Part shown: piece after piece, positions 6,611-21,129 of the stretch | How positions within the stretch are numbered: position 1 is the stretch's first letter | Layout: each line of letters opens with the position of its first letter | From: an uncultured Opitutaceae bacterium | GTDB taxonomy: Bacteria > Verrucomicrobiota > Verrucomicrobiia > Opitutales > Opitutaceae | Reading direction: 5' to 3' | Assembly: GCA_964574435.1 (NCBI GenBank) | Contig: CAZNNO010000009.1 | Span: forward strand, 3,828-67,827 | DNA: 64,000 nt | Position numbers and translations under genes: made by a program | Notes under the pieces: generated by a model | Told to the model about the DNA's origin: nothing | The model's input: only the letters and a program-made list of their open reading frames with translations | Database searches by the model: none

Positions 6611-9600
6611 TCAGTCGGCCGGACGGCGGACGAGGCGGCCCGATTCCGGCGGCGGCGCCACCTCGGGCTGCTCCTCGGCGAACGCCCGCGTGGGCGCGAG
6701 CGCCTGGCCGGATGCCGTCTGCAGCCTGCCGTCCTTCACCGCCACGTCCTCGACCCGGTAGAGGCGGCCCTCCCTCCGCAGGAACGCATCGAACTCGCCC
6801 GCGTTGAACGGGCGGCTGCCGCGCCTGCCGAAGACCACGGTCTGGTTGCCGGTCTCGTCGACCACCCGGTCGCGATCGAGTCCGCGGCTCACGGCCACGG
6901 CCGCGCCCCGGGTCGGGTAGGTGGCGATCAGCCTCGGGTTCGGGGCCGGGCTGAATCCCATGTAGCCGGGGACGTTCTCGGGCGAGATCATCTGGAGGAC
7001 CCGCAGGCCGTTCTTCCCGTCAGCGACGAGCGCGTACATGGACGCGCTCACGGAGCCGATCTGCACGGCGCGCGTGTCATTGAGCTGCCCGCCGGCGCTG
7101 AAAATCTCCCTGAGGCTCGGGGACGCCGGATTCTTGATGTCCACGATCGCGAGGCCCTCGGAGCCGTCGGCGACATAGAGGTAGGTCCGGGCCGCGTAGA
7201 GGCCCTGCGCATCCCTCAGGGGGACCGTGGCGCCCGCCAGGGGCGCGGGATTGTCCGGGTCGGCCAGGTCGAGGACCTTCACGCCGTCGTCGTCGGTGAC
7301 GAAGGCGTACAGGAACTGGACGGCCAGGCTCCGCGGGTTGCGCAGGAACCCGGCGGGCGTGCGGCCTGTTATCCGCGGCTTCGTCGGGTCGCTCACATCG
7401 ACAACCACGAGGCCCGCGGTGCAGGTCACGTAGAGTCGCCTTCCGGCGACATAGGCGTGCGTCGCCCCGTCGAGCGCGCCGCCGGGGTTGAAGCGCGTGA
7501 CGTCCGAATCCCTGAAGAAGTTGTTCGTGGGATCGCCGTCGAGGAGCGTCCCGACCATCACGTCGACCAGGCCCTCGTAGCGGTCGGTGACGTAGACGTA
7601 ACCGTAGACCAGGCTGATCGGCTGCTCCTCGTTCTCCGGCCGGTGGGTGCGAAGGGGGTCGATGCCGAGCGTGCTGGGAAGGGCCACGCTTGTCGCATAC
7701 TTCGTGCGGACCCAGAGGCGCTGGCCGAGGGGCGAGACCGGGGCCGAGACGATGCGCTCCGAGAAGCCCTTGTTGTCGACATTCGCGACGTCGAATACCT
7801 CGAATCCGCCGGGGCCGTTGGCCGTGTACAGGTACTCGCCGCGCAGCGTGAGGTCCCTGATGTCCTCGCCGTCGTGGTGCCAGCCCTCCTTGAGGACGCC
7901 CGCGTTGGCCTCGACATGCAGCCTGTAGTTGTCCGGATACGCGAGGCGCTGGAGGTGGCTGCCCAGGGGCGCCTGGGGCTCCTCGCGCTCCGTCCACGCG
8001 ACGGCGTCAAAGCCGTCGCGCCCGGAGCCGACATAGGCGTAGCGTCCGAAGAAGTTGACCGTGCCCGTCCCGAAGCCGAGCAGCTGGGTCACCCAGGCAT
8101 TGTTGTCGTTCGAGGCGGACAGGTGGCAATCCGTGCAGTTCTTCGTCGTGCCCACCGAGCTTGTCGTGTGGGGGAAATGCGGGTTGAAGGCCTGGCCTGA
8201 GTAGCCCTCCGCCGATATGGTCTGCTGCTGAGAATAGATCCATTCGCGGTTGGCGTTCTGCGATCCCACGATGACCGCGCTCGACGAGCGCAGGACGGCC
8301 AGGCGGTTCCCCTTGTAGGTGGCGTCCTTGCCGAGCATGAACACGTCGTCGCGCACGACCTGGGGGTTGTAGCTCGTGTAGTTGCGCGTGGTCGTCCCCT
8401 CGAACTTGTTGGCCTGGACCATCTTGTTTGCGCGCATCGGCAGGTGGCAGCCGAAGCAGCTCGTCGCCCATGACGTGTGGCATATCTGGCACGAGATATT
8501 GGAATTTGCGTGGGCAAGCTGCTCGGAGATGATGACGGGGTTCGCGGGCACGTCGCCCCACGTTACCCCGTCCCGCCGCAGGGTCTTCGCGTAGGCGGAC
8601 TTCGGGTTGTAATGCTCCGAGGCGGGGTTGATCGTGTCGATAGTCTGCGGGACCTCCCAGACCACGTCGGGGGTCATCATCGAGCGCTGGTAGAGCCGGC
8701 GCCCGACCCAGAAGAACCTGGGTCCCCACGGCGTGGAGCCCTTGGACAGGTCGGACGGCTCGACTTTTCCGTCCTCAAAGGTCCCGGAATTGCCCGTGGT
8801 CACCAGCGTCGGCCTCCGCTCTACGGTGCCGTGGCAGTCGATGCACTCGATTGCGGTCGCAGCGCGCGGTTCGCCGTAGAGCAGCCCGTTGCCGTGCACA
8901 TCGGTCCCGAAGTGGCAGTCGACGCACTGCATGCCGCGCGCAAGATGGACGTCCTTCAGGTGCACTGCCTTCGTGAACTTCGCGGGGTCGTCGTGGTCGA
9001 TGGGCTTGTCGTCGAGCGTGAGGAGGTTGCCCTCGCGATCCTTCTTGAATACGGCGCGGAACACCCATCCGTGGCCATGGTAGTCGGCAAACTGGGTCTG
9101 CTTCAGCTTGGGATTGAGCTCGGCTACCTTCTCCAGGAAGTCGGGATCGCCCCAGAGGCCCCTCGCCGCGGCAGCCTCGGGGTTGCGCTGCAGCGAAGCC
9201 GCCACCTCGGCCTCCGTCGGGTTCCTCTGGGAGGCCGGGTACATGAATTCGCCGTCGCTCTCCTGGTCCCACCAGATGTAGCCGAGAAAGGGGTTAACAA
9301 ACAGGTTGCCCTGGTGCATGTGGCAGGTGATGCACTGGCTCGACGGGATGCTGCGCGTGAACTGGTGGCGGATCGGGTGGGCCTTCTCGCGCTTGGAGAT
9401 CATGGGGTCGCCAGTGAAGCTGAGTCCCTGGTTGCCGTACTTGGACCACCAGCCGGAATTGGTCGGCGACCGGTCGTTCGCATAGACAACATGGCAGGCG
9501 GCGCAGCCCGACGAGCGGTAGTCGCCCGGGTGGTCGTTCGAGCCCATGAAGCCGAGGAGGGGATCGTGCAGCCGGGTCTTCTGAAGGTTGAGGAACACGG

Positions 9601-10498
9601 GGTCGATGCGGTTGAGCGTCCCAAGGCCCCTTTCCGAGAGGCGCCGCTCCGGATGACCGGGCGTCTCGAACGGGTCGGGAATCCCGATCCGCTCCTGCTT
9701 CTCGCCGCCCTCCTCGAAGATCCGCAGGATGTTCGACGGCTGGCCGAGCTCGAAGCGGGGCAGCGGCTCGAGGTAGGGAAGGATGCCGTTGAGCCGGGTC
9801 AGCTCCGGGGAGACGGGCACGGGGCTCTCCAGCCGCAGGGCCTCGCCATTGGCCCCGTACGCCTGACCGTAGCGCGGGTTCTTGAACGGAACCGCGCCGT
9901 TGTTATAGAGGGCGGCGCCCCAGAGCATCGCCCCGTGGTTCATCATGCTCTTGCCGACATGCTGGACTATCTCGCCGTGGCATAACCCGCAGGCCTTGTC
10001 CGCCACCCGCAGATCCGCCGGGTTCACGAACCGGATGAACTCCTCCGACTCGTGGTTGAGCAGGACCGAGGAGTCGGAGGGTTTTGCCGAGCTCTGCCAG
10101 AAGACCGGGTTGCGCGGCGCGACGTGGGCCTTTCGCATCGTCAGCCCGGGTGTCGGGTCGCCTCCGTGGCAGTCGACGCAGCCGAGGACCACGAAGGGCG
10201 AGGCGTGCATGTCCTCGACTCCGCTGTGGCACTGCAGGCAGCCGGCGCTCTTGCGCCGGGCCGCCTCCGGGCTCTGGTCCACGAGGGTGGCCTCCTTCGG
10301 CGCAGGCAGGGGGGCATCGGACGAGCGCGCGTCCCGCGAGACGGAGATCGGCGGACCAAAGAGCGTCGGTCCCGCCGGGGCCTGGGCTGCGCCTGGGGTC
10401 CCCGCCGGCTGCGCGAGCGAACACAGCGCCAGGCCCGCGCCCGCGACGGCCGCGATCAGGCGCTGGGCGCGTACGGGCTTCTTCGGTGGGAAAGGCAT
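6611..10498 (-). CDS. Secreted decahaem c-type cytochrome fused to a C-terminal LVIVD-repeat beta-propeller
   Basis: ATG at 10498. Sec-type signal peptide (RLIAAVAGAGLALCSLAQP). Ten CXXCH motifs in the first ~800 aa (CLQCH, CVDCH, CGLCH, CAACH, CITCH, CVDCH, CIDCH, CQICH, CFGCH, CTDCH). The C-terminal ~450 aa carries repeated GFEVFDVANVDN, GLVVVDVSDPTKP, GVKVLDLADPDNP, GLAIVDIKNPASP and GLRVLQMISPEN units typical of LVIVD repeats. Confidence 0.85.
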   Translation of the reverse strand: MPFPPKKPVRAQRLIAAVAGAGLALCSLAQPAGTPGAAQAPAGPTLFGPPISVSRDARSSDAPLPAPKEATLVDQSPEAARRKSAGCLQCHSGVEDMHASPFVVLGCVDCHGGDPTPGLTMRKAHVAPRNPVFWQSSAKPSDSSVLLNHESEEFIRFVNPADLRVADKACGLCHGEIVQHVGKSMMNHGAMLWGAALYNNGAVPFKNPRYGQAYGANGEALRLESPVPVSPELTRLNGILPYLEPLPRFELGQPSNILRIFEEGGEKQERIGIPDPFETPGHPERRLSERGLGTLNRIDPVFLNLQKTRLHDPLLGFMGSNDHPGDYRSSGCAACHVVYANDRSPTNSGWWSKYGNQGLSFTGDPMISKREKAHPIRHQFTRSIPSSQCITCHMHQGNLFVNPFLGYIWWDQESDGEFMYPASQRNPTEAEVAASLQRNPEAAAARGLWGDPDFLEKVAELNPKLKQTQFADYHGHGWVFRAVFKKDREGNLLTLDDKPIDHDDPAKFTKAVHLKDVHLARGMQCVDCHFGTDVHGNGLLYGEPRAATAIECIDCHGTVERRPTLVTTGNSGTFEDGKVEPSDLSKGSTPWGPRFFWVGRRLYQRSMMTPDVVWEVPQTIDTINPASEHYNPKSAYAKTLRRDGVTWGDVPANPVIISEQLAHANSNISCQICHTSWATSCFGCHLPMRANKMVQANKFEGTTTRNYTSYNPQVVRDDVFMLGKDATYKGNRLAVLRSSSAVIVGSQNANREWIYSQQQTISAEGYSGQAFNPHFPHTTSSVGTTKNCTDCHLSASNDNNAWVTQLLGFGTGTVNFFGRYAYVGSGRDGFDAVAWTEREEPQAPLGSHLQRLAYPDNYRLHVEANAGVLKEGWHHDGEDIRDLTLRGEYLYTANGPGGFEVFDVANVDNKGFSERIVSAPVSPLGQRLWVRTKYATSVALPSTLGIDPLRTHRPENEEQPISLVYGYVYVTDRYEGLVDVMVGTLLDGDPTNNFFRDSDVTRFNPGGALDGATHAYVAGRRLYVTCTAGLVVVDVSDPTKPRITGRTPAGFLRNPRSLAVQFLYAFVTDDDGVKVLDLADPDNPAPLAGATVPLRDAQGLYAARTYLYVADGSEGLAIVDIKNPASPSLREIFSAGGQLNDTRAVQIGSVSASMYALVADGKNGLRVLQMISPENVPGYMGFSPAPNPRLIATYPTRGAAVAVSRGLDRDRVVDETGNQTVVFGRRGSRPFNAGEFDAFLRREGRLYRVEDVAVKDGRLQTASGQALAPTRAFAEEQPEVAPPPESGRLVRRPAD

Positions 10499-10516: not shown

Positions 10517-12841
10517 TCAGTAGGTGAACGTTCCGGCGAGAATTGCGCTGTACAAAAATTGGTCAACCTTGCCGCTCGAGGCGGGCGTGAATCCGGGCAC
10601 GGCCGGCACCGTGTTCGTGTAGATGTCCCGGTAGCCGCTTCCGGGAAGCAGGACACCGCAGCCGGCGGAGATAATGACGTTGCTAATGAGGAAGGGGCGC
10701 CACTGGAACCCGAGGCTCAGGTCGAAGCCGATGCTGCGGCCCGCCTGGTTTGTCATGAGGACCGTCTTCAGGGTGTCGGTCGAGTCAAACTGGAGGTAGT
10801 TTGCGTTCGCGAAGGCCCGAAGCTTCGGGGTAATGTCCGCCTCGGCGCCCAGGCCGTACAGCAGCAGGCCCGGATTCACGAAATTGGACTGTCCCTCGAA
10901 GGAGCCTCCCGCGCGAAGGTCGGGAAGCAGGCTGAAGCGCTGCTTGAGCGGGACCGACGTCCCGCCGAGGTTGAAGCTTTGGCGCACCCAGTAGCTGAAC
11001 GGCCCCCCGGTGAAGTTCGTGTTGTCCTCGATCGAGTCAAAGCCCGTTGCGCGCCCGCCCTGAGGGTCCCTGTCGCCCGACGCGTAGAAGAACGAGGCCT
11101 TGTAGCGGATCCAGTCCCTGTCGAAGCTCAGCTCGATCGCCGCCATCTCCGCCAAGATGTCCTCCGGGCGCCCCGCAAGGCCGTTGAACTCGTCGCGGCC
11201 TGTGACGAGATAGAGGGCGTCATCCACGTTCAGCTTGCCGATATGACCGTCCCCGGTCAGCCCGATGTAGTAGCTGTCGACGCGGTGGGCTCGAACCGTG
11301 CCGATCGGCGCGGGGCGAACAAGGAATCCGTTCGTGTCGTACTTGGTGCCCGGCTGGTCGAAGCTGCCCAGGACGCTGAGCTCCGTGGTGAACCCGGGGA
11401 ACAGCGAGTCCTGGCGGTAGACGTTCGCGACCGCCACGAGCTGGCCGCGCCTCTGGAAAGTGTTGAGGTCCGAGTCCGTGTCCTTCTCGCGCAGGTCGAA
11501 CAGGGCGAGGTTGTATTGCCACTTGTTGTTGCCGTAGTTGCCGAAGAAGCGGGCGCCGAGGTTCGTGTCGTTGAATATGAAGCCGCGGAAGTCGCTGTTG
11601 AACGTCTGGTTTCCGACGTCGACGGCGCAGAAGTCGTAGTTGGGGGACAGGTCGGCGAGGTGCACCTCGAGGAACGCCTCCTGGAGCGAAACGTAGGTCC
11701 TGTCCCGGGATGTCGCCTGGGTGCCGGCCAGGCTTCCCGGGGCGGGAGTGAGCCCCCCGAGGAGCGAGCCCACGTCGCCCGGGTTTGTGACCCCACCGTC
11801 GTCCGTTCCCGTCCCGTTCGAGGTCAGCGACCCGGTCGGGCTCGGGGAAACCTGGGCCGTCTCGCGGAAATCCACGTGGTTGAAGTCGAAGACGGGCTTG
11901 ATATGCACCAGCCAGTCGACCGGCTTGAACACCGTGTCCCCCTTGAAGAGGTCGAACTCGAGCGCGAGGTCCGACGTGAAGAGCCGCGAGCCGCTGTTCC
12001 CGTAGAAATTGAAGCTTCCCGCGGACGCCGCGCTCGGGCCGCTGGGAACCGGCAGCGTCCGGTCCTCGCCGACAAAGTCGGCCGTCGCGGTGAGCCTGAG
12101 GAACACGTCCTGGCCGCTTATCGGCAGGTCTCCCTTGAGCATGCTCTGGCGGTAATAGTGCCAGAACTCGGGATCGGAATGAAAATACGGCATCTCCTCG
12201 GTGTCGCCGGAGGTGTAGCGGCGCCAGGGCTCGAAGCCTTCCCGCCAGCGGTCGGGCACGGGCCGCGCCCCGGGGAACGCGCCGGGGGTGTCCGCAGGCG
12301 GGTAGGAGCCCGGGGCGCTCCAGTGGCCCGGGATGAACTCGTCCTCGCGCACGCCCGCCCTCGGGAGCCTGAGCGGCGCGGGGAGGGGCTCCTGGCCGTA
12401 GCCGGACGGCGCGGCGGCCTCGGGGGCCTGCGCGATCTGGACCCGCTCGAGGGGCCCGCGGGCCACGCTGACCTGCGCGGTCTCCTGCTTGGCCGGCTCC
12501 GCGGCCTGGAACGTCGAGAAAAGGGAAGGCTCCGGTGCGGGCGCCACTGCCTGCCAGGCTCCGGGGTCCGGGTCGAACTGGAGCGCGGGCTGGGCGCCAT
12601 TGCCCTCTGGGATACGCCTGAGCACGAGGACAGGCGGGGGAAGCGCCACGGGCGGCGCCGGCAGGGGCGCGCCCGGATCGACGTGGACATCGCTCGGCGC
12701 CGCGGGAGGCGTTCCCCTGGACTCCCGTTGCATGGGGCGCGGCTTGTCGGCGGGCAGGACGTCGGGCGCGACCGCGGGGCCGCTCCGGCAAGCCGCCAGG
12801 GCGACAAGGACGAAGGCCGACGTCAGCAGCGCTCGCCTCAT
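10517..12841 (-). CDS. Large outer-membrane beta-barrel lipoprotein (porin-like component)
   Basis: The internal ATG at 12841 gives MRRALLTSAFVLVALAACRSG (lipobox LAAC) and overlaps the upstream stop by 4 nt (ATGA). A ~200-aa Pro/Ala-rich linker is followed by ~550 aa with alternating hydrophobic/polar, Gly/Asp/Asn/Tyr/Phe-rich barrel-type composition, ending ...LAGTFTY with a C-terminal aromatic residue. The longer ORF to 13072 is rejected. Confidence 0.7.
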   Translation of the reverse strand: MRRALLTSAFVLVALAACRSGPAVAPDVLPADKPRPMQRESRGTPPAAPSDVHVDPGAPLPAPPVALPPPVLVLRRIPEGNGAQPALQFDPDPGAWQAVAPAPEPSLFSTFQAAEPAKQETAQVSVARGPLERVQIAQAPEAAAPSGYGQEPLPAPLRLPRAGVREDEFIPGHWSAPGSYPPADTPGAFPGARPVPDRWREGFEPWRRYTSGDTEEMPYFHSDPEFWHYYRQSMLKGDLPISGQDVFLRLTATADFVGEDRTLPVPSGPSAASAGSFNFYGNSGSRLFTSDLALEFDLFKGDTVFKPVDWLVHIKPVFDFNHVDFRETAQVSPSPTGSLTSNGTGTDDGGVTNPGDVGSLLGGLTPAPGSLAGTQATSRDRTYVSLQEAFLEVHLADLSPNYDFCAVDVGNQTFNSDFRGFIFNDTNLGARFFGNYGNNKWQYNLALFDLREKDTDSDLNTFQRRGQLVAVANVYRQDSLFPGFTTELSVLGSFDQPGTKYDTNGFLVRPAPIGTVRAHRVDSYYIGLTGDGHIGKLNVDDALYLVTGRDEFNGLAGRPEDILAEMAAIELSFDRDWIRYKASFFYASGDRDPQGGRATGFDSIEDNTNFTGGPFSYWVRQSFNLGGTSVPLKQRFSLLPDLRAGGSFEGQSNFVNPGLLLYGLGAEADITPKLRAFANANYLQFDSTDTLKTVLMTNQAGRSIGFDLSLGFQWRPFLISNVIISAGCGVLLPGSGYRDIYTNTVPAVPGFTPASSGKVDQFLYSAILAGTFTY

Positions 12842-14541
12842 GGCAGCTTCGCCGTCAACGACCCCCTGGACAGCATCGCCGGCATGTTGTGGTAGACGTG
12901 GCAGGTCGTGCAGCTGTGCGCGACGCCGCCCTTCGGGCTGTGGCATCGGACGCAGCTCTGCTGCGTCGGAAGGATGACGTCGGAGGTGCGCTCGCTTGCG
13001 GCCGCCGCGTGGCACTCGGTGCAGGCCATGGCCGAGTGGGCCGAATGGCGGAACGAAGCGCCGAGCAGCCACCGGTCGGGCGTCTCCGGGGGCGTCACCT
13101 GGGGAACCGCGCTCCCGCGCCAGGCGACGTCGTGGCAGAGCGCGCAGCCCGCGAATTTCGCCCGCTCCTCTCCTCCACCGGCGGCCGGCATGGTCTTGCC
13201 GTTGCTGAGAAAGACCTCCCGCTCAAGTTCCTCGCCGCTGTGCGCGCGCTGGCGCAGCGACTCGAGCTTGCGCCGCACAAAGGCCTCGACCTCCCTTTGG
13301 GAGGAGATCCCGAGCTTGCGAACGGCGAAGTCGGCGTACTGGACTGGGAGGCTTCGCAGGAACGCCCGCACGAACGCCGCGTTGCCGTGCGGAAGGTTCA
13401 TCCCGGGCGTCCGTTCGTCGAAGTCGAGTGCGTGGCAGGCGCGGCATGAGCCCTCGAAGGAGATCCGGGACATGTAGGCCCCGGAGGCGTCGGGCCTGTG
13501 GCAGTAGGCGCAGTCGAGCGGACGGCCGTCCACCAGCGGGATGTCGGTGCCGACCAGGTGGAGACGGTGGTTGAAGCGGAGCGTGTTGACGTCCTGGGAC
13601 TTGTCGCGCAGCACCCGGAACTCGGGGTGATCGGCGGCAAACCCCGTAATCACCTCGGTGTATCCGTCGACAGGCCTGCGCACCGAATGAACGACGAGGC
13701 CGGGAGGGGCCGGACGCTCGAACAGGATCGCCGGCAGGGGCCGGCTCAGCTGGCGCGACGCCTGCATCTGCCTTGGGTCGCCGTGGCACGCGATGCAGTT
13801 CTGCCCGGATACCGCCAGCATCGGGCCGGAGCCCTGGTGCTCCCGGTGGCAGACGGGGCACGAGGTTGCGCGCGCCACGTCGGCCTCGTGGAAGCCCCGC
13901 GCCGCATGGCAGGCCAGGCAAGAACGGTCCATGCGCGAGAAATCCTTCGGGTGATCGCCCGTCAGGTCCGCGAAGCGAAGCGAGGTCCGGGAGGCCGCGA
14001 GGGCATCCAGGGCTAGGTCGCTGAACGTCGAATTCGCGACCGCATGGCAGAGGACGCAGCCCTGCCCGCCCTTCGCGCCCGGCACGCCCGCGGCCAGGTG
14101 CGCGAATTCGGGGCCCGAATGCTGCCGGGAGAGCGGCCGGGGATTTATGAAAATGTCCCGCGCCGAACCCGACAGGCCGACCAGGAGCGCCCCAAGCGCC
14201 GCCGCGGTCACCGCAAGGGCGACCTGGCCGCGGCGCGCCCGCAGGCTGCGCACCGGCTTGCATCGGGGGACCGCGCGGCAGCACGCGCCGTCGGGCAGCG
14301 GCCCGGCCTCGCACGGGCCGCCCCAGTCTTCGGGCCGCGTGCAAACCCACGTGCCCTTTGTTTCGCCCGGCTTGAGCGCGAGACGCGGGGCGCACTCCGT
14401 CGTTGCGCGGCATTTGCCGGTCGGACTCGGGCCGATGCGGCACGGGCACCCGTCCTTCGCGTTGCCGCACACCCAGTCCTTGTTCGGGCGCTCGTAGCGG
14501 CCGCTATTGAAGTCCGGCGTGGGCGCTCTTCCCTCGCTCAT
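12838..14541 (-). CDS. Signal-anchored decahaem c-type cytochrome with N-terminal cytoplasmic Cys-rich domain
   Basis: ATG at 14541 overlaps the upstream stop (ATGA). Residues ~20-95 contain 10 Cys (WVCGNAKDGCPC..GKC..TEC..WVC..GPC..ACC..PRC). These are followed by RSLRARRGQ and one TM helix (VALAVTAAALGALLVGL), then ten CXXCH motifs (CVLCH, CLACH, CPVCH, CIACH, CAYCH, CRACH, CALCH, CTECH, CVRCH, CTTCH). Confidence 0.85.
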   Translation of the reverse strand: MSEGRAPTPDFNSGRYERPNKDWVCGNAKDGCPCRIGPSPTGKCRATTECAPRLALKPGETKGTWVCTRPEDWGGPCEAGPLPDGACCRAVPRCKPVRSLRARRGQVALAVTAAALGALLVGLSGSARDIFINPRPLSRQHSGPEFAHLAAGVPGAKGGQGCVLCHAVANSTFSDLALDALAASRTSLRFADLTGDHPKDFSRMDRSCLACHAARGFHEADVARATSCPVCHREHQGSGPMLAVSGQNCIACHGDPRQMQASRQLSRPLPAILFERPAPPGLVVHSVRRPVDGYTEVITGFAADHPEFRVLRDKSQDVNTLRFNHRLHLVGTDIPLVDGRPLDCAYCHRPDASGAYMSRISFEGSCRACHALDFDERTPGMNLPHGNAAFVRAFLRSLPVQYADFAVRKLGISSQREVEAFVRRKLESLRQRAHSGEELEREVFLSNGKTMPAAGGGEERAKFAGCALCHDVAWRGSAVPQVTPPETPDRWLLGASFRHSAHSAMACTECHAAAASERTSDVILPTQQSCVRCHSPKGGVAHSCTTCHVYHNMPAMLSRGSLTAKLP

Positions 14542-15365
14542 CGCGCCCCCCCTGAAAAAGCATAGACCAACACGACATGCACGCCCGTGAACGTCAGCAT
14601 CGCATAGGTCAGCGGTATGTGGACAAACAGCCAGCCCTTCAGGACGAGCTGCATCGAGCGGTGGAGGTCGAGGGCGTCCTTCTCGCGCACCAGAGCCGCG
14701 AGCTCGACCGCCGCCGACTTCTCAAAGTGGCTCAGGTACTTCTTGATCTCCCCGATGTCCGCAAGGAGCCTGTTCAGGGTGTGGCGGGAGCCAAGCAGAT
14801 GCGGCCCGAAGTTCGCCGGGCCGGCGAAGAAGCCGCTCAGCCTCGCGGCGTAGAAGTCGGCAAGGGTCGTCGCGCCCGCCGTGGGGATGCCGGCGACCAC
14901 AAGGGCCTCGGCGCGCTCGCGCAGCGACCGGCGGATGGACGGGATTCGCTCGTAGGGGACCTCGCCCCCGGCGCTCGTCAGCCTGCGCGGCAGGACGCTC
15001 GAAAGCCACCAGCCGGCGATGCCGCTCAGCGTTACCCCGACGAAGAGCGCGGCCAGCGTTGCCTCGAACGGCCCCCGGGGAAGGCGCCGGCCCGCGTGCA
15101 TGAAAAATACGATGGCCGTCAGCATCCCAATCCAGGAATGAAGCCGCATCCAGGTCCGAGAGCTCACTAGCGGCAGGAAGGCGATCTTCTTGCGCAGGTT
15201 GTAGGCGGTCAGGAAAAGCGTCAGGGCAAACAGAACCCACCCCGTGAGGTAGGCCAGGCGGGGGTTAACCGTCTCGGCCCTGCTGAACGCCCAGATGGCC
15301 GCTGCCGCGGCCCCGGTCGCCGCGGCCGGATAACCGGCCCGCCTTAGGATCCGGCCCGCCTTCAT
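14538..15365 (-). CDS. Polytopic membrane protein with four intramembrane His (candidate dihaem b-type cytochrome)
   Basis: ATG at 15365 (MKAGRIL) overlaps the upstream stop by 4 nt. About 5 predicted TM helices, with His in helices at WMRLHSWIG, VFFMHAG, LFVHIPL and FTGVHVVL, plus a ~110-aa soluble loop. Haem b binding is an inference. Confidence 0.65.
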   Translation of the reverse strand: MKAGRILRRAGYPAAATGAAAAAIWAFSRAETVNPRLAYLTGWVLFALTLFLTAYNLRKKIAFLPLVSSRTWMRLHSWIGMLTAIVFFMHAGRRLPRGPFEATLAALFVGVTLSGIAGWWLSSVLPRRLTSAGGEVPYERIPSIRRSLRERAEALVVAGIPTAGATTLADFYAARLSGFFAGPANFGPHLLGSRHTLNRLLADIGEIKKYLSHFEKSAAVELAALVREKDALDLHRSMQLVLKGWLFVHIPLTYAMLTFTGVHVVLVYAFSGGAR

Positions 15366-17086
15366 CTTTGAATCCAGCTCACGAGCTCGTCGAGCGTGTT
15401 GAGGTTGATCCTTTTCAGCGCGTCGTGAGGGCACGCGCGCTCGCAGGCCGGCCCCCCGTACTGGTCATTGCAGAGGTCGCACTTGGTCGCCTTGTGGATC
15501 GGGTTGGAATCGCTCGCGAGGAGGATGGCCCCCTTTCGGTCGCGCTGCTCGACCATGCGGATGGCCCCGTACGGGCAGTTGTTGGCACAGGCCGAGCAGC
15601 CGATGCAGCTCGAAGGGTTGATGACGACGTTTCCCTCAAAGGTCTCGCGGTGGATGGCGCCCGTCGGGCACCCGATCATGCAGATCGGGTCCGTGCAGTG
15701 CATGCAGGCCTGGGCCACCATGAGGTTGTTGTGGATGGGGCCGTGCCTCAGGAAGCGCGGGTTGTTGTCATGAGTGGCGGCGCACGCCCGGACGCAGTCG
15801 TCGCACCGGGTGCAGTGGTCCAGGTCGATGACCATGGTCTTCGTCCCGTTGAAGAACCTGTTCTGGGTGACGAATTCCATGACCTCCGCCGCCACGCGCG
15901 CGTCGGGCGACTCCGGTGAGGAGGCGGGCCTGAGACGCGCGTCGGCGCGGCGGTCGCCCTCGATCGGGGGCGGAAGCATGGCGTCGGGCATCGCCGGCAG
16001 CACGATCTCCTCTATGATGGAGGCCGGTATCACGAGCACATGCGTGTACCCGATGACGCGAAGGGTGTGCTGGAGGGCGACGTGGTCGTTCGGCCGGCGC
16101 CAGTTGTGAGCGATCTCGTCGAAGCCGTACATGCGTCCCGAGCCGAGGTAGCTGAGGGTGCGGTGCCCGCTTCCATAGCGCTGCGTGACGCGCGCGAACC
16201 CGGCCCGGATCATCACGACGCTGTTGGGGTAGTCGCCCTCGACCGCGATCGTCGGCTCCTGCGCGGCCGAGGCCCCGGACTGCACGAGCTGCTTGTATTC
16301 GCCGGACCAGTCGTATTCCCCGTAAGTCTCGAACTGCGTCGCGTCCATCAGGCGCCTCTTGGCGTCCGCGCCGAGGAACCTCATGAACGGCAGCTCCTCC
16401 AGGTAGGTCGAGAGGGCCCTGTCCCTGTAGATCCCGTCGATGAACTTCCTGACTTGGGGGTCGTAGCGCATGAGGTCGCGCAGGCCCTGCCAGCGGATCT
16501 CGAGCATCTCGGCGCCACCGGCCTTTGCCAGGATTGTCGCGGTCCGAGGGAGTCGAGAAAGCGCGGCTATCTCGCCGAAGACGTCGCCGACGCTGATGGT
16601 CGCTGTGCGCTGGCCGCTCAGGACGCGCGGGATGTCCTGGAGGATGATGCCGGGCTCGGCGTCGCCCGACCGCGCCGCAGGGGTGTCGGCTCCCGCGCCC
16701 CCCTTCGCCACCTCGTCCTCGGCGGGATTCGTCCAGAGCTGGGCAAGCGCCCGGAACAGTCCCCGTCGGGCCGGTTCGCTTCGTCCCACGAGCCTCGGCG
16801 GCAGACCCGGGCTTAGGACGACCTCTGCGGAGCCCGACATGACCATGAAAGCCGAGTTCCCATAGTCGCCCTCGCGCACGATGATCTCGCCGGGCTTGAA
16901 CTGGCGCAGGCGCGCGTCGTTCCTAAGGATGTCGTGGAGCTGTGCCGATCTCGGGAAGCTCTCCGGGTTCATTTCCTTGAACGGGGGGATCCTCAGGAGC
17001 CGGCCCACGTCCATCTCGGACATGTCCTTGCTGAACGGGACATCCCACCGCCTCGGACGATTGAGACCGGACGTGGACTGGCTCAT
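15362..17086 (-). CDS. Two cyclic-nucleotide-binding domains fused to a four-cluster [4Fe-4S] ferredoxin (DmsB/NrfC-like), cytoplasmic
   Basis: ATG at 17086 (MSQSTSGLN) shares 1 nt with the upstream stop (TGATG). cNMP-type segments are FKPGEIIVREGDYGNSAFMVMSG...GDVFGEIAAL and a second AVEGDYPNSVVMIRAGFARV...GRMYGFDEI. The C-terminus has CTRCDDCVRAC, CMHCTDPICMIGCP, CIGCSACANNCP and CDLCND..ACERACP. No signal peptide. The upstream extension to 17431 is rejected. Confidence 0.85.
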   Translation of the reverse strand: MSQSTSGLNRPRRWDVPFSKDMSEMDVGRLLRIPPFKEMNPESFPRSAQLHDILRNDARLRQFKPGEIIVREGDYGNSAFMVMSGSAEVVLSPGLPPRLVGRSEPARRGLFRALAQLWTNPAEDEVAKGGAGADTPAARSGDAEPGIILQDIPRVLSGQRTATISVGDVFGEIAALSRLPRTATILAKAGGAEMLEIRWQGLRDLMRYDPQVRKFIDGIYRDRALSTYLEELPFMRFLGADAKRRLMDATQFETYGEYDWSGEYKQLVQSGASAAQEPTIAVEGDYPNSVVMIRAGFARVTQRYGSGHRTLSYLGSGRMYGFDEIAHNWRRPNDHVALQHTLRVIGYTHVLVIPASIIEEIVLPAMPDAMLPPPIEGDRRADARLRPASSPESPDARVAAEVMEFVTQNRFFNGTKTMVIDLDHCTRCDDCVRACAATHDNNPRFLRHGPIHNNLMVAQACMHCTDPICMIGCPTGAIHRETFEGNVVINPSSCIGCSACANNCPYGAIRMVEQRDRKGAILLASDSNPIHKATKCDLCNDQYGGPACERACPHDALKRINLNTLDELVSWIQR

Positions 17087-18381
17087 CAGGCGTCGATTAC
17101 CAGCGCGGTGGCGGGCCGGCAGATGCACGCGAGGCAGGAACCCTGCTCCACGTCGGCCCCGTGAGCGCCTATGTATTCCACCGAACCGGACTTGATCGCG
17201 ACAAGGCAGGAGCCGCAGTTGCCGGCGCGACACCCGGCGTCGATCCGGATCTGTGCCTCCTCGGCCAGCTCGAGGAGGGAACGCCCGCCGCCCTGCCAGG
17301 TGACCTTGCGGCCAGATTTCGCGAACGTGACCTCCAGGCCGCCAAACGGGGCGAACGTGACGGCGACCTTCGCCTCGGGCTTTGCCGCGCGCTTTACCGA
17401 GGCGGGGCCGAAGGCCTCGAAATGCACCCACTCGTCAGGCACTCCCCATTTCCTGAGGTCCTCGGTTATGCTCTCCATGAATGCGCCGGGGCCGCAGAGG
17501 AAATACTCGAAGTTGTTGGAGGGAAGCACCTGCTTGAAGAGGTCCACCGTGACCCGCCCCTGATGCTGGTAATCGCGGCCCTTTACGTCCGACTCTAGCG
17601 GCTTGGAATAGCAGATGTGAACCCGCACGTTCCTGTGATCGCTGCCAAGAGCGCTCATGTAGCCCTTGAACATGTGATCCTTGTTGTTCCGGGCCCCGTG
17701 GAAGAACCAGATCTCGCGGGACGACTTGGTCTCCAGCAGCGCGTTGGCCATGGCCACCATGGGCGTCACGCCCACTCCGCCCGAGATGAGGACGACCGGC
17801 CGCTCCTGCTCCGGGTCGAGGTGGAAGTGCCCGTTCGGCGCCTTCACGTCGAGGATGTCGCCAACCTTGACCTGGTCGCAGAAGAAGGACGAACCCACGC
17901 CTGGCGGGTGGATTCCCCCCTCTGCCGGAGGGCAGCGCTTTATGGTAACGCGGTAGTGCGTCGCCCGGGCGCAGTCCGAGAGCGAGTAGCATCGCACCAG
18001 CGGTTTTCCGAGTCCCGGGATGTTCAGCAGGAACGTGAGGTACTGGCCGGGCTTGAACGGGGGCAGGGGTTTGCCGTCGTGGGGCTTGAGGTAGAACGAG
18101 TAGGTGTCTGCGCATTCCATCACCTTCTGGGTCACCGAGAACTTGCGGATTCCGTTCCAGGCCGACTTGGCCTCCTCAACGTTCTTTATCTGCTGGCGGG
18201 CCTTCTCGATCTCGAGCTCCAGCCGCCGGCACTGCAACGCCGCCCGCCTTCTCTCCGCAAGCAGCCCGAGGATTCCGGTCGCTGCCAGGACACACACCTC
18301 CGTCGCGAGACCGAGGACGATCAGGACACCTGCGGTCGCCTCGGGGTGATCGGCGACAAATTTTAAGATCCTCACCAGCAT
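17086..18381 (-). CDS. Membrane-anchored FNR-family flavoprotein oxidoreductase with C-terminal plant-type [2Fe-2S] ferredoxin domain
   Basis: ATG at 18381. N-terminal TM helix (GVLIVLGLATEVCVLAATGILGLL) and a coiled stretch. FAD-binding RCYSLSD (RxYS), NAD(P)-binding VVLISGGVGVTPMVAM, then CRAGNCGSC...CLAC 2Fe-2S ligands. Confidence 0.85.
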   Translation of the reverse strand: MLVRILKFVADHPEATAGVLIVLGLATEVCVLAATGILGLLAERRRAALQCRRLELEIEKARQQIKNVEEAKSAWNGIRKFSVTQKVMECADTYSFYLKPHDGKPLPPFKPGQYLTFLLNIPGLGKPLVRCYSLSDCARATHYRVTIKRCPPAEGGIHPPGVGSSFFCDQVKVGDILDVKAPNGHFHLDPEQERPVVLISGGVGVTPMVAMANALLETKSSREIWFFHGARNNKDHMFKGYMSALGSDHRNVRVHICYSKPLESDVKGRDYQHQGRVTVDLFKQVLPSNNFEYFLCGPGAFMESITEDLRKWGVPDEWVHFEAFGPASVKRAAKPEAKVAVTFAPFGGLEVTFAKSGRKVTWQGGGRSLLELAEEAQIRIDAGCRAGNCGSCLVAIKSGSVEYIGAHGADVEQGSCLACICRPATALVIDA

Positions 18382-18497
18382 TCAATAAATGTGGATTATG
18401 CGCGCAAGGGCCAGAACGGCGACATTTGACGCTGGAATTGAAGCCCCAGACAACCCATTGGTAGTGGAGACTCTCCTACCGGGCCAAACCAAATATC
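18382..18497. promoter_or_regulatory. Divergent promoter region between the redox operon and the multihaem cytochrome gene
   Basis: 116-bp intergenic spacer flanked by two divergently oriented ATG starts (18381 minus, 18498 plus). It is relatively AT-rich compared with the flanks. No specific operator was identified. Confidence 0.35.
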
Positions 18498-19640
18498 ATG
18501 CGACCGGCAACAAAAGTGGGCATCGTGGCGATCCTGGGCCTGGCCGCCCTGGCTCCCCTTGCGCCGGCGGCCGCCCTTGAGGGGCTCGGGGCAGGCACGT
18601 GCTCCACAAGCGGCTGCCATGGGGGCGCGGGCGAAATGAGCAACCAGTATGTCGTTTGGGTGCAACGAGACGTGCATTCCCGGTCCTATGCCACGCTCAA
18701 CACGGCGCGCTCCGCCCGAATGGCCGAGGCGCTGTCCGTGGCCAATCCGGCAACAAGTCCGCGCTGCATCGTGTGCCATGCGCCGCTGGCGAGCATCCCG
18801 TCCATGGGCCCAGGCGCGGGATTCGACCCGGCCGAGGGCGTTTCGTGCGTGAGCTGCCACGACCTGCCGGCCGGCTGGCTTCGCAGTCACACCCGCAAGG
18901 ACTGGACGCACGCCGACCGCGTCGCGGCCGGCATGCGCGACTTGAACGACCTTTATTGCCGGGCGAACACCTGCGTCGCCTGCCACCAGAATGTCGATCC
19001 CGAGCTTGTGAGCGTCGGACGCCACCCCGCTCTCATCTTCGAGCTCGACGGTCAGACCCAGGACGAGCCGAAGCATTGGCGCGAGCGCTCGGCCGACATT
19101 GGAGCCCAGGCCTGGTTTGTCGGGCAGGCGGTTGCCCTGAGGGAGGTCAGCTGGGCCCTCCTCAACGGCCGGGCGGACACCGCGCGCTCAATTCCCGTAT
19201 GGCGGGGACTGGTCTGGCTGCTGGCCCGCAGCGGAGTGGACGCCGGGTTGGCGCCGTTGGCCCTGTCGGCGCCCTCGCAGTCGGCGCTGGCGTCCGCAGT
19301 CGAGACTGCCGACCTGCTGGCGAAGAGGGCGGCGCAGACCTGGGAGCCGCAGTCCGCTGGCACCGTGCTAAGGCGCCTCGCAGCGACCCAGGATGACTTC
19401 CTCGCCACGGACATTCCGCAGCTTGAGCAGGCATGCCGCGCCGAGCGGCTCGTCCTGGCCCTCGACCGGCTCCTGGCCGCAGTGCCGGCCGAAGGCCGCC
19501 CGCCCGAAGCCTCCAAGCGGCTGGACCGGCTCTTCAGGCTCGCGCAGTCGCAGCCGGATTTCGTGCCGGCCGACTTTGCGCACGAGCTCGCGGCCTTTTC
19601 AGGGGCGCTCGGCGGGCTCAGTGGCTCGACGACGCGCTGA
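18498..19640 (+). CDS. Secreted multihaem c-type cytochrome (3 CXXCH plus one CX4CH)
   Basis: ATG at 18498. Signal peptide (VGIVAILGLAALAPLAPAAA). Motifs CSTSGCH (CX4CH), CIVCH, CVSCH and CVACH in the first ~170 aa, followed by a ~200-aa Ala/Leu-rich non-haem C-terminal region. Confidence 0.8.
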   Translation: MRPATKVGIVAILGLAALAPLAPAAALEGLGAGTCSTSGCHGGAGEMSNQYVVWVQRDVHSRSYATLNTARSARMAEALSVANPATSPRCIVCHAPLASIPSMGPGAGFDPAEGVSCVSCHDLPAGWLRSHTRKDWTHADRVAAGMRDLNDLYCRANTCVACHQNVDPELVSVGRHPALIFELDGQTQDEPKHWRERSADIGAQAWFVGQAVALREVSWALLNGRADTARSIPVWRGLVWLLARSGVDAGLAPLALSAPSQSALASAVETADLLAKRAAQTWEPQSAGTVLRRLAATQDDFLATDIPQLEQACRAERLVLALDRLLAAVPAEGRPPEASKRLDRLFRLAQSQPDFVPADFAHELAAFSGALGGLSGSTTR

Positions 19641-21129
19641 CCGGCGGGGTCGGCGGGTTGAGCTCGGGCTCGCGCGGGAACACGGCGTAGGGCAGCCTGG
19701 CGCCGAGATAGGTGAAATTGTCGGCCCGTATGGCGGGATCCGGTTGGAATCCCGGCGTGCCAGAGGCCGAGATCAGGTCGTCCTGGTCGACGCCGTCCCC
19801 CGATACGCCGATTGCCCCGATGAGCACGCCGTTGCGGTAGAGGGGGAATCCGCCGGGGAAAATGGTGATCCCGTCGGGAAGGTTGCCGTTGATGGTGCCT
19901 GTGCCGCTTATGATTGGGGCCGAGAAGGTCGCCTGCAGGCCGTTGAAGGGGCCCGGCGGCTCGCCGTCAATCCCGGGGGGGTACATCGACTGCGCCAGGA
20001 ACCCCACGGTTCTCGCGGAGAACGCCCGGCTTGCGTCCGAGAAGAAGAGCGCCGTGCGCGCCTTCTGGACTGAGACATCCCACGAGAAGAGCGTGGCGTC
20101 GGGCGTCCGGAAGGTGCCGAGGACAACGGGCGCCTCGCCGGGACTGTTCGGGTTGTTGACGACCGAGATGAACACCTCCGCATTCTGGCCCACCGGCAGT
20201 CGGATGCCGGCTCGCGTCACAAGGGAGCGGGCGGCCGCGCTGGAGATGATGCCCCTGACCTCGGCCGCCGAGAGGCGCGCCTGTCCGGAAATGGCGCCGG
20301 GTGCCGGGTCGGCTATGATCGGCGACCTAACCTGGCCGAGCACCCCTCCCATCACCGCCGTCGGCCATGCGAGCGGGGAGAGTTCGACCAGGCCGGTCGT
20401 GTCCGGAGCGACAGCGGCCGAAATCGGCCCAGGGGAGCTCGCCACATAGGGGAAGCCGATGCCGCCGACGTAGATGCCTGTGGCAAGGATGTCCTGGGGG
20501 GGGGCGTAGCCTACCTGCCCCGTCAGGGCGACCACCTCGTTGGTGTCGGGACCGTAGATGCTTCCGTCCTCGACCTCGGGTCCGGCGCCGGTGACTCCGA
20601 TGCCGGCAAGGAGGACGCCGTTCTTGTAGAGCGGGACCCCCCCGGGCGAGCCGTAGAGCCGGGTGCCCGGAATGCGGCTTCCGTCGAGGCGGCGGAAGCT
20701 GTTGATGTCCGAGAACGCCAGGGAAGAGAACCCGACGCCCACAAGGGGCCCCGGGGGCGTGTTCGCAACGCCTGGTGGGTAGTGCTGCTGGATTATGAAG
20801 CCGGCCGTCCGCGACGTCAGGGCCTCGCCGTCGCTGCTCAGGAATGCGGCCGTGCCTGCCTTTGAAACGGCTATGGCCTCCTCGGTCTCGGAGAAATTCT
20901 GGGTGCCGTCGGCCGCGCGCACCAGCAGCTCGCGTCCGTCGCGGTCCACGATCGCGATGACCGAGGCAGGTGAGATCTGCCGGGCGATGCCGGCCGCCTG
21001 AGAAAAAATCGTCGCCTGGTCATCGACGGTCAGGCCCTGGCCGGAGGCAGCCGACGCGACTGCGAGGGCGCCCGCGCACAGGAGCGTCTGGCGCAGCGTC
21101 TGAAATCCGCTTCCAAGGGCCTCGATCAC
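19618..21129 (-). CDS. Secreted protein with two tandem GlcG/HbpS-like (DUF336) domains
   Basis: GTG start at 21129 and a signal-like N-terminus. Two copies of the pattern ..IAIVDRDG..L....DG.......A..KA.TA..F... and GG.PLY.NGVL.G.IGV.G (GGVPLYKNGVLLAGIGVTG and GGFPLYRNGVLIGAIGVSG). Confidence 0.7.
   Translation of the reverse strand: MIEALGSGFQTLRQTLLCAGALAVASAASGQGLTVDDQATIFSQAAGIARQISPASVIAIVDRDGRELLVRAADGTQNFSETEEAIAVSKAGTAAFLSSDGEALTSRTAGFIIQQHYPPGVANTPPGPLVGVGFSSLAFSDINSFRRLDGSRIPGTRLYGSPGGVPLYKNGVLLAGIGVTGAGPEVEDGSIYGPDTNEVVALTGQVGYAPPQDILATGIYVGGIGFPYVASSPGPISAAVAPDTTGLVELSPLAWPTAVMGGVLGQVRSPIIADPAPGAISGQARLSAAEVRGIISSAAARSLVTRAGIRLPVGQNAEVFISVVNNPNSPGEAPVVLGTFRTPDATLFSWDVSVQKARTALFFSDASRAFSARTVGFLAQSMYPPGIDGEPPGPFNGLQATFSAPIISGTGTINGNLPDGITIFPGGFPLYRNGVLIGAIGVSGDGVDQDDLISASGTPGFQPDPAIRADNFTYLGARLPYAVFPREPELNPPTPPVSASSSH

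Follow-up and report, generated by a model that had tools for sequence, protein, structure and literature searches.

The closest described system to the gene analysed here is the ptdABCDEFG operon, named from marine Alphaproteobacteria, Nitrospirales, Planctomycetes and others (bioRxiv 10.1101/2023.11.21.568154). Its products are the pentahaem PtdA, the porin PtdB, the FAD/NAD(P) oxidoreductase PtdC, the tetrahaem PtdD, PtdE with cyclic-nucleotide-binding (cNMP-binding) and 4Fe-4S domains, the transmembrane 'ferric reductase-like' PtdF and the decahaem PtdG. The same preprint lists carriers in several phyla (its Table S7), reports that PSORTb placed PtdE at the cytoplasmic membrane (its Table S8) and states that the function of the cluster 'remains completely unknown'. 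A full-text literature search returned this preprint as the single description of the family. Here we analysed a 64,000-nucleotide stretch (the window) from an uncultured Opitutaceae bacterium of the Verrucomicrobiota (assembly GCA_964574435.1, contig CAZNNO010000009.1, positions 3,828 to 67,827 of the forward strand), and within it a gene at 15362..17086 on the minus strand (stop codon included) that encodes a 574-residue protein in which a tandem of cNMP-binding (CNB) domains precedes a four-[4Fe-4S] ferredoxin module. This protein is a further member of the named but uncharacterised PtdE family. We propose, as a reading that stands a little on the probable side of even, that the PtdE family forms an iron-sulphur (Fe-S) wire moving NAD(P)H electrons out of the cytoplasm, and that the CNB tandem switches this export on and off.

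The domain content of PtdE, cNMP-binding plus 4Fe-4S, is found in the window protein, and counterparts of PtdC, PtdD, PtdF and PtdG are all present in the window, in a rearranged order. Unlike the published cluster, the window has its ptdC directly upstream of the ptdE-like gene and its tetrahaem-type gene in divergent orientation, and it carries a different barrel and a decahaem-LVIVD protein in place of PtdA and PtdB; neither of these two had a tblastn match in the marine ptd loci. A further difference is that the preprint counts two clusters in PtdE, whereas 16 invariant Cys in the proteins studied here indicate four. Two of the related loci follow the published arrangement: a SAR324 locus (L113) has the full order of pentahaem ... 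FNR - tetrahaem - PtdE-like - membrane protein - decahaem, and a locus from marine Alphaproteobacteria (L126) has the published order but is cut within the FNR gene. The PtdE-like proteins that both encode are 47-50% identical to the window protein over the full length. Judged by comparison with these published-order loci, the window gene is thus orthologous to ptdE, and the cluster around it is a Verrucomicrobial variant.

Two other described systems are nearby in kind. He et al. 2017 (PMC5615132) reported a different, eight-haem porin-cytochrome cluster in Verrucomicrobia and made no mention of a PtdE-like protein. In Ferrigenium straubiae, a trio of a [4Fe-4S] protein, a five-transmembrane-segment protein and an FHA-nonahaem cytochrome has been described as of unknown function (bioRxiv 10.64898/2026.01.22.701106). 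That trio shares with the window a cytoplasmic Fe-S protein, a small helical membrane protein, a membrane-anchored multihaem cytochrome and a signalling domain on the cytoplasmic side. However, it is the cytochrome that bears the signalling domain there, one of FHA type, and the description includes no CNB domain; the two are likened by layout, not by homology.

An earlier note on this DNA, made from its letters, had given the coordinates of the window gene exactly; we correct the strand to minus, as the interval is open on the minus strand only and a plus-strand reading was rejected for its internal stops. This gene stands second in a row of six that all run in the same direction, and it is translationally coupled to both neighbours: one base is common to its start codon (ATG at 17086) and the TGA that ends the upstream flavoprotein gene (TGATG), and its stop codon (TGA, 15362-15364) and the start codon of the membrane-protein gene downstream overlap as ATGA. 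A longer open reading frame (ORF) from a GTG at 17431 was rejected, as homologues start at the conserved MS..RPRRWDxPF, the ATG of which overlaps the upstream stop. In the product, the conserved RPRRWDxPF is followed by an acidic, non-hydrophobic stretch (maximum 12-residue Kyte-Doolittle mean over the first 60 residues, 0.41). Because no hydrophobic N-terminal region and no transmembrane segment were predicted over the whole sequence, the protein is by prediction cytoplasmic. Tat export was rejected, there being no h-region after RPRRWD and no transmembrane segment, which agrees with the missing Tat signal remarked on previously.

The C-terminal part (residues 400-574; 15365..15889, minus strand) is a HycB/HydN-like ferredoxin module with four Cys motifs, as defined by Pfam, NCBIfam, a PDB search and Cys invariance. 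A conserved helix, MEF(L/V)T.NRFFNG (residues 400-414), precedes the Cys motifs, and PF13247 (Fer4_11) is matched at 36.8 bits against a cut-off of 26.2, with eight other Fer4 families also above cut-off (nine in total, residues ~455-565). The protein contains exactly 16 Cys, all of them in the four motifs (C425/428/431/435, C461/464/469/473, C494/497/500/504 and C536/539/548/552), which have the layout CxxCxxCxxxC / CxxCx4CxxxCP / CxxCxxCxxxCP / CxxCxnCxxxCP. All 16 are invariant in an alignment of 39 PtdE homologues reaching down to 37% identity (alignment A2, on which the AlphaFold2 model was also built), and they indicate four predicted [4Fe-4S] clusters.

The closest PDB sequences to this module are HycB3 and HycB4 of the hydrogen-dependent CO2 reductase (7qv7_A, E 1.7e-17, residues 418-569) and HycB of formate hydrogenlyase (7z0s_B). 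The top ranks in NCBIfam went to AegA (its N-terminal part), HydN and DmsB, all far under their cut-offs. Against the equivalog thresholds the module scored 68/260 for HydN (NF007658), 63.4/214.1 for DmsB (TIGR02951) and 40.8/377.6 for NrfC (TIGR03149), and orthology to any of the three was rejected. It is therefore a member of the four-cluster ferredoxin superfamily and not a DmsB/NrfC orthologue, so that the earlier label of a DmsB/NrfC-type module holds at the level of the superfamily (PF13247) and gives way to HycB/HydN-type as the closest match. With HycB, HydN and HycB3-type ferredoxins the protein shares four Cys motifs, a predicted cytoplasmic location and a predicted role as a wire between subunits, but the window locus has no hydrogenase or formate dehydrogenase partner, and the 400-residue CNB tandem is unique to the PtdE family. 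The molybdoenzyme beta subunits DmsB, NrfC and PsrB have the PF13247 superfamily and the four-cluster layout in common with it; unlike them, the PtdE-like protein has no Tat signal and its operon encodes no molybdopterin subunit and no NrfD-type anchor.

The neighbouring genes place this module between a probable donor and a probable membrane relay. Directly upstream, the ptdC-like gene (17086..18381, minus strand) encodes an FNR-type flavoprotein with an N-terminal transmembrane helix, FAD_binding_6, NAD_binding_1 and a C-terminal [2Fe-2S] Fer2 domain, which by its domains is the probable electron donor. The ptdF-like gene lies directly downstream (14538..15365, minus strand) and encodes a helical membrane protein of 275 residues with invariant H76, H90, H249 and H263. 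We sampled 127 related loci from species-representative genomes for synteny. Of the 122 loci with room for it, 118 have the membrane protein as the next downstream gene, in the same orientation. An FNR-like gene is found in 70/70 loci with wide flanks, immediately upstream of the ptdE-like gene in 56 of them, while in 12 the tetrahaem gene is directly upstream. The operon core is near-universal across the sample. The absence of a catalytic partner, as previously stated, is correct for a molybdoenzyme; it does not hold for the flavoprotein on one side and the four-His membrane protein on the other. Moreover, the suggested co-occurrence with multihaem clusters was recovered throughout: haem-rich ORFs, and not unrelated enzymes, are found in each of the 106 loci whose downstream sequence extends for 2.6 kb or more, and all but one of these have a decahaem gene downstream of the membrane protein. 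In the window that gene is the ptdG-like one (12838..14541, minus strand), encoding a membrane-anchored decahaem cytochrome c with 10 CXXCH motifs, identified with Pfam and by its conserved position.

In the path that we propose, NAD(P)H would reduce the FAD and then the [2Fe-2S] cluster of the membrane-tethered PtdC-like flavoprotein, and electrons would then run along the four [4Fe-4S] clusters of the PtdE-like protein. Two b haems, with the four invariant His of the PtdF-like protein as their ligands, would carry them across the membrane to the periplasmic decahaem cytochrome, from which they would pass to the barrel and an outer decahaem. A comparable logic is known from Fre-MsrQ of E. coli and from NADPH oxidase/ferric reductases, in which electrons from a cytoplasmic NAD(P)H flavoprotein enter a membrane protein with two haems and leave it on the periplasmic side. 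The likeness is one of analogy and not of membership, and the PtdE system differs in placing a [2Fe-2S] and four [4Fe-4S] clusters between flavin and haems. The earlier note had spoken of a respiratory wire, and this is where we depart from it: the PtdE-like protein probably stands outside the quinone-linked respiratory chain, in what looks like a direct path from NAD(P)H to the periplasm.

Outward flow along this path is favoured by redox potentials and by the membrane potential. The reverse arrangement, in which electrons from outside (Fe(II), reduced humics or a partner cell) would enter through the cytochromes and pass via the haems and the PtdE-like protein to NAD(P)+, is improbable. Porin-cytochrome conduits that run inward are known, MtoAB and PioAB among them. 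Further in its favour, the Fe(II) oxidiser Ferrigenium straubiae has related three-gene modules, for which inward flow to quinone is considered by the authors (bioRxiv 10.64898/2026.01.22.701106). Nevertheless, electrons moving in this direction would have both the membrane potential and the low potential of NAD(P)+ against them, Pfam and NCBIfam scans found no ion-coupling subunit encoded in the operon, and the relatives of the window organism are heterotrophs of peat, soil and lakes.

For export as we propose it, the membrane step depends on the PtdF-like protein. Its four His are invariant in 20 homologues. They lie in pairs, H76 with H90 on one helix and H249 with H263 on a second, and within each pair the spacing is 14 residues, as would be expected if two bis-His b haems were stacked there. 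The pattern makes the protein a probable di-haem b relay. In three representatives (P0135, P0177 and P0187) the PtdE-like part continues into the four-His protein within a single chain. Such fusions argue for a contact between the PtdE-like and PtdF-like proteins, with the C-terminus of the ferredoxin meeting the cytoplasmic N-terminus of the membrane protein, although it is possible that the three are artefacts of assembly or gene calling.

The regulatory part of the proposal concerns the N-terminal region, where PF00027 (cNMP_binding) scores 70.1 bits (cut-off 27.5; E 1.6e-19) over three stretches that were placed by a six-frame search of the organism's own genome. Together with the PF13247 match and the 16 Cys, this bears out the fusion of CNB domains to a four-cluster ferredoxin that had been read from the letters. 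CNB1 consists of residues 61-90 (model positions 2-31) and 160-207 (model positions 41-87), with ~69 residues inserted in the beta4-beta5 loop, in the gap between model positions 31 and 41. CNB2 covers residues 279-360 at 27.6 bits against 27.5. On the minus strand, the N-terminal helices and strands beta1-beta4 of CNB1 (residues ~35-91) map to 16814..16984, drawn from the Pfam stretch 61-90 and a model confidence (pLDDT) of ~90. They are followed by the family-specific insert (residues ~92-155; 16622..16813), recognised by the Pfam gap, its conservation and a pLDDT of <50, and by the CNB1 phosphate-binding cassette FGEIAALSRLPRTAT (residues 170-184; 16535..16579), placed by alignment to PKG and PKA cassettes. 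CNB2 in full (residues ~235-365) occupies 15992..16384, with a conserved barrel and a non-canonical cassette (G321-F-D-E324-IAHNW ... TLRVIG346), and a Pro-rich linker of variable length among homologues (residues 366-399; 15890..15991; pLDDT <50) leads to the ferredoxin. In the AlphaFold2 model the pLDDT is ~90 over both CNB domains but drops to <50 in the insert, in the linker and through most of the Fe-S half. Its best Foldseek/PDB matches are the tandem CNB-A/B domains of PKA regulatory subunits and of PKG (E 4e-17 to 1e-13, ~350 columns, residues ~30-370).

The cassette of CNB1 aligns without gaps with the functional cassettes of Plasmodium PKG (FGERALLYDEPRTAS), PKA and SthK, and it carries Gly171, the ribose-binding Glu172, the phosphate-binding Arg181 and, next to it, Thr182. 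Across alignment A2, F170, G171, A175, R178 and R181 are invariant and E172, T182 and T184 are at least 90% conserved. In a wider set, made up of 123 cluster representatives (clustering at 50% identity; 33-56% identity to the window protein), Gly171 is retained in 119, Glu172 in 102 and Arg181 in 107 (His in 10), and the full Gly-Glu/Asp/Gln...Arg pattern in 92. Inspection of these residues had been put forward as the check on ligand binding, and by this alignment CNB1 keeps an intact phosphate-binding cassette; the loss of ligand-binding residues in all orthologues, which the earlier note had named as refuting its reading, is not observed. Arg-Thr cassettes are found in PKG, HCN and CNG sites, and a preference of CNB1 for cAMP or cGMP cannot be read from the motif. 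The earlier note had counted two cNMP modules; Pfam and AlphaFold both recover two, of which only CNB1 is canonical. The cassette region of CNB2 carries a family-specific motif, G321-[LF]-x-E324-[ILV] ... [ST]-L342-R343-A-[VI]-G346, although the fold is kept, and a search with CNB2 gave as its sole match the Thermus Crp 4ev0, weakly (E 0.2). CNB2 may have another ligand, or its part may be structural or that of a relay. The resemblance to PKA and PKG regulatory subunits thus comprises the tandem CNB-A/CNB-B fold and a CNB1 cassette that aligns with their functional sites. The identity is ~14%, however, and the PtdE-like protein differs in having no kinase partner, inhibitor segment or docking domain, in the 69-residue insert in CNB1 and in the divergent cassette of CNB2.

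Several observations bear on whether this region receives a signal. FHA (phosphothreonine-binding) domains occur in nine representatives (P0128, P0133, P0169, P0205, P0230, P0231, P0241, P0129 and P0152), either at the N-terminus (P0128, in two copies) or between the CNB domains (P0133, P0169, P0205 and others). The CNB1 cassette is kept in 9/9 of them, and the idea that FHA domains replace a degenerate cassette was rejected on this count. Because nine representatives add FHA domains here and all keep the cassette, the N-terminal part would be a platform for signal input; evidently, to go by these domain architectures, it gathers signalling domains. The window genome encodes three class III nucleotide cyclases and holds 13 CNB matches in at least eight ORFs, and cyclases were found in 19/20 other PtdE-bearing genomes versus 4/14 control genomes. 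Moreover, on another contig of the same genome, a NrfD-family membrane subunit of 560 residues (L139, 656-2338, plus strand; PF03916, E 7e-37) embeds a CNB domain (PF00027, E 4e-19, residues 299-382) with a canonical cassette, FGEVSAITGTARAATAVA. Just before it lies a PsrB/NrfC-type four-cluster Fe-S gene (L139, 3-647, plus strand), and a multihaem cytochrome gene is found 3.5 kb from the NrfD gene on the same contig (5856-6929, minus strand). This locus appears to encode a second redox complex with a built-in CNB domain. Because that NrfD-family subunit also embeds a canonical CNB domain, CNB domains in redox subunits would seem to be a recurring theme in the window organism.

A combination of CNB and Fe-S domains is reminiscent of FNR-type sensors, and several signalling domains are found in the PtdE module. 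On these grounds the protein might be a sensor and not a conduit, its Fe-S clusters reporting cytoplasmic redox state or O2 and the protein, informed by these and by the nucleotide signal, regulating its neighbours by binding to them, in the manner of Crp/Fnr but without binding DNA. We regard this as highly improbable. Four complete ferredoxin motifs in the HycB arrangement are typical of wires, the protein has no helix-turn-helix (HTH) or other output domain, and it is encoded between donor and membrane relay and fused to the relay in some genomes. An actual Crp/Fnr regulator was rejected outright, as the Pfam scan of the protein found no HTH family, its C-terminal half being the ferredoxin.

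For a wire under nucleotide control, the PKA-R-like tandem would be the regulatory input. CNB1 would bind cAMP or cGMP, and ligand-bound CNB1 would shift the tandem relative to the flexibly tethered ferredoxin or to its partners, turning export on or off. By analogy with PKA-R, nucleotide at CNB1 might move the B/C helices (residues ~199-249) and so reposition CNB2. Because the tandem is tethered by the variable Pro-rich linker, it could cover or uncover a site of docking, such as the conserved helix at residues 400-414 or the terminal cluster. A fast switch at the protein level would make sense, with the path run on demand, because export of NAD(P)H electrons bypasses the quinone pool and energy conservation and dissipates the membrane potential. 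From the conserved cassette, gating by a second messenger is plausible. A narrower claim we advance tentatively and at somewhat less than an even chance: that cAMP or cGMP, once bound to CNB1, directly gates the passage of electrons that leads from the flavoprotein via the four clusters to the membrane haems.

The same features allow a different role for the tandem. The protein would still be a wire, but the CNB domains would be a mere scaffold that docks it to the flavoprotein, the membrane subunit or the membrane surface, with any bound nucleotide as a constitutive structural ligand and electron flow controlled elsewhere, for example by transcription or substrate supply. This we consider rather unlikely. 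It accords with the non-canonical CNB2, with the 31/123 representatives that have no canonical CNB1 cassette, with the flexible linker to the Fe-S module and with the placement of PtdE at the cytoplasmic membrane by PSORTb (Table S8, bioRxiv 10.1101/2023.11.21.568154). It also accords with the conserved 69-residue insert, the amphipathic helix of which resembles a docking element. The insert has the conserved motifs LPP..GR.E and LAQLW..EDE in alignment A2 (EDE being acidic), and its helix, RGLFRALAQLW, has a hydrophobic moment of 0.74, the third highest in the protein; this helix may bind a partner or a membrane surface. The variable linker and the 25% of degenerate cassettes leave real room for such a scaffold. 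Nevertheless, three quarters of the family strictly keep Gly-Glu...Arg-Thr even though its members have diverged to ~35% identity, which is hard to explain without a ligand, and the repeated gain of FHA domains in the N-terminal region points to regulation.

Other points count against a nucleotide-switched export wire. The cofactors, nucleotide binding and direction of flow are all predicted from sequence and models. The linker between CNB tandem and ferredoxin is long, variable and of low confidence, which disfavours tight allosteric coupling, and AlphaFold models the Fe-S half poorly (pLDDT <50), with no usable geometry for that half or for contacts between domains. The CNB1 cassette is degenerate in 31/123 representatives, in which Glu172 or Arg181 is lost, and the wire therefore works without a canonical site in some lineages. 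As for CNB2, alignment and position statistics found no canonical Glu/Arg-Thr-Ala cassette, the region GFDEIAHNW...QHTLRV having no Arg-Thr/Ser-Ala. The co-occurrence with cyclases discriminates weakly, because cyclases are common in these phyla. For the PtdF-like protein, the evidence for a di-haem role is the His pattern alone. Its Pfam matches to DUF4405, Ferric_reduct and cytochrome b561 are all sub-threshold (Ferric_reduct, PF01794, 15 bits against 28, E 0.027), a PDB profile search found nothing, and its AlphaFold model, although confident (pLDDT 89), has no significant fold match in the PDB (best Foldseek E 0.24; none at E <= 0.001). A 'ferric-reductase-like' fold is supported by neither the Pfam cut-offs, the PDB profile search nor Foldseek, and this model may represent an undescribed haem-binding membrane fold.

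If the gated wire is real, it would be, to our knowledge, the first case in which a second messenger acts on the protein itself to gate an electron-transfer wire. It would amount to a regulated 'electron valve' through which hundreds of species, belonging to several phyla, vent NAD(P)H electrons outside the cell. The module, widespread though patchy, would then take electrons from NAD(P)H straight across the inner membrane and hand them to multihaem cytochromes, skipping the quinone pool, and bacteria of peat, soil, lakes and oceans would have both a new route and a new mode of control for extracellular electron transfer. This would bear on the reduction of iron and humic substances and on redox balancing, and synthetic biology would gain an electron conduit that a ligand can switch. 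Such control may extend to other redox complexes, as the NrfD subunit with its CNB domain, encoded by the same genome, hints. The gating idea is attractive and testable by ordinary biochemistry, and the PtdE-like protein is a good target for it, being soluble by prediction, with a clear ligand hypothesis that names residues and with cultured hosts in existence, among them Verrucomicrobia bacterium IMCC26134, Hwanghaeella grinnelliae and Tistlia consotensis.

The family is widely but unevenly distributed. At E <= 1e-30, 568 50%-identity clusters match the PtdE-like protein, and at least 581 species genomes hold a relative, from Verrucomicrobiota, Planctomycetota, Alphaproteobacteria, SAR324, Nitrospinota, Methylomirabilota and others. 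Within its own phylum the gene is patchy, being present in 12/401 sampled genomes (the window's own counted) and, in its own family, in 7/35 (its own not counted). The nearest relatives, with up to 84% identity, are encoded by Opitutaceae metagenome-assembled genomes from peat and lakes. This patchiness in the phylum, together with close relatives in other phyla, suggests an accessory module spread by horizontal transfer.

The remaining genes of the locus complete the cluster variant. Downstream of the ptdG-like gene, a putative outer-membrane barrel (10517..12841, minus strand) is conserved only in Verrucomicrobiota loci, and the last gene of the operon (6611..10498, minus strand) encodes a decahaem cytochrome fused to LVIVD repeats, as identified by Pfam, NCBIfam and haem motifs. 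On the other side, the ptdD-like cytochrome gene is transcribed divergently (18498..19640, plus strand) and has three CXXCH motifs, with a fourth, CX4CH site remarked on by the earlier note; in the marine loci its homologue sits between ptdC and ptdE on the same strand. A 226-residue ORF at 18396-19076 on the minus strand was rejected as spurious, being an antisense shadow of this cytochrome gene without a family match, and its apparent conservation elsewhere mirrors the antisense cytochrome gene. Beyond it, 19618-21129 (minus strand) encodes a 503-residue protein with two HbpS-like (haem-degrading/GlcG-type, PF03928) stretches, a possible haem-related accessory or sensor, for which tblastn gives matches no more than a few kb from the operon in many Opitutaceae loci.

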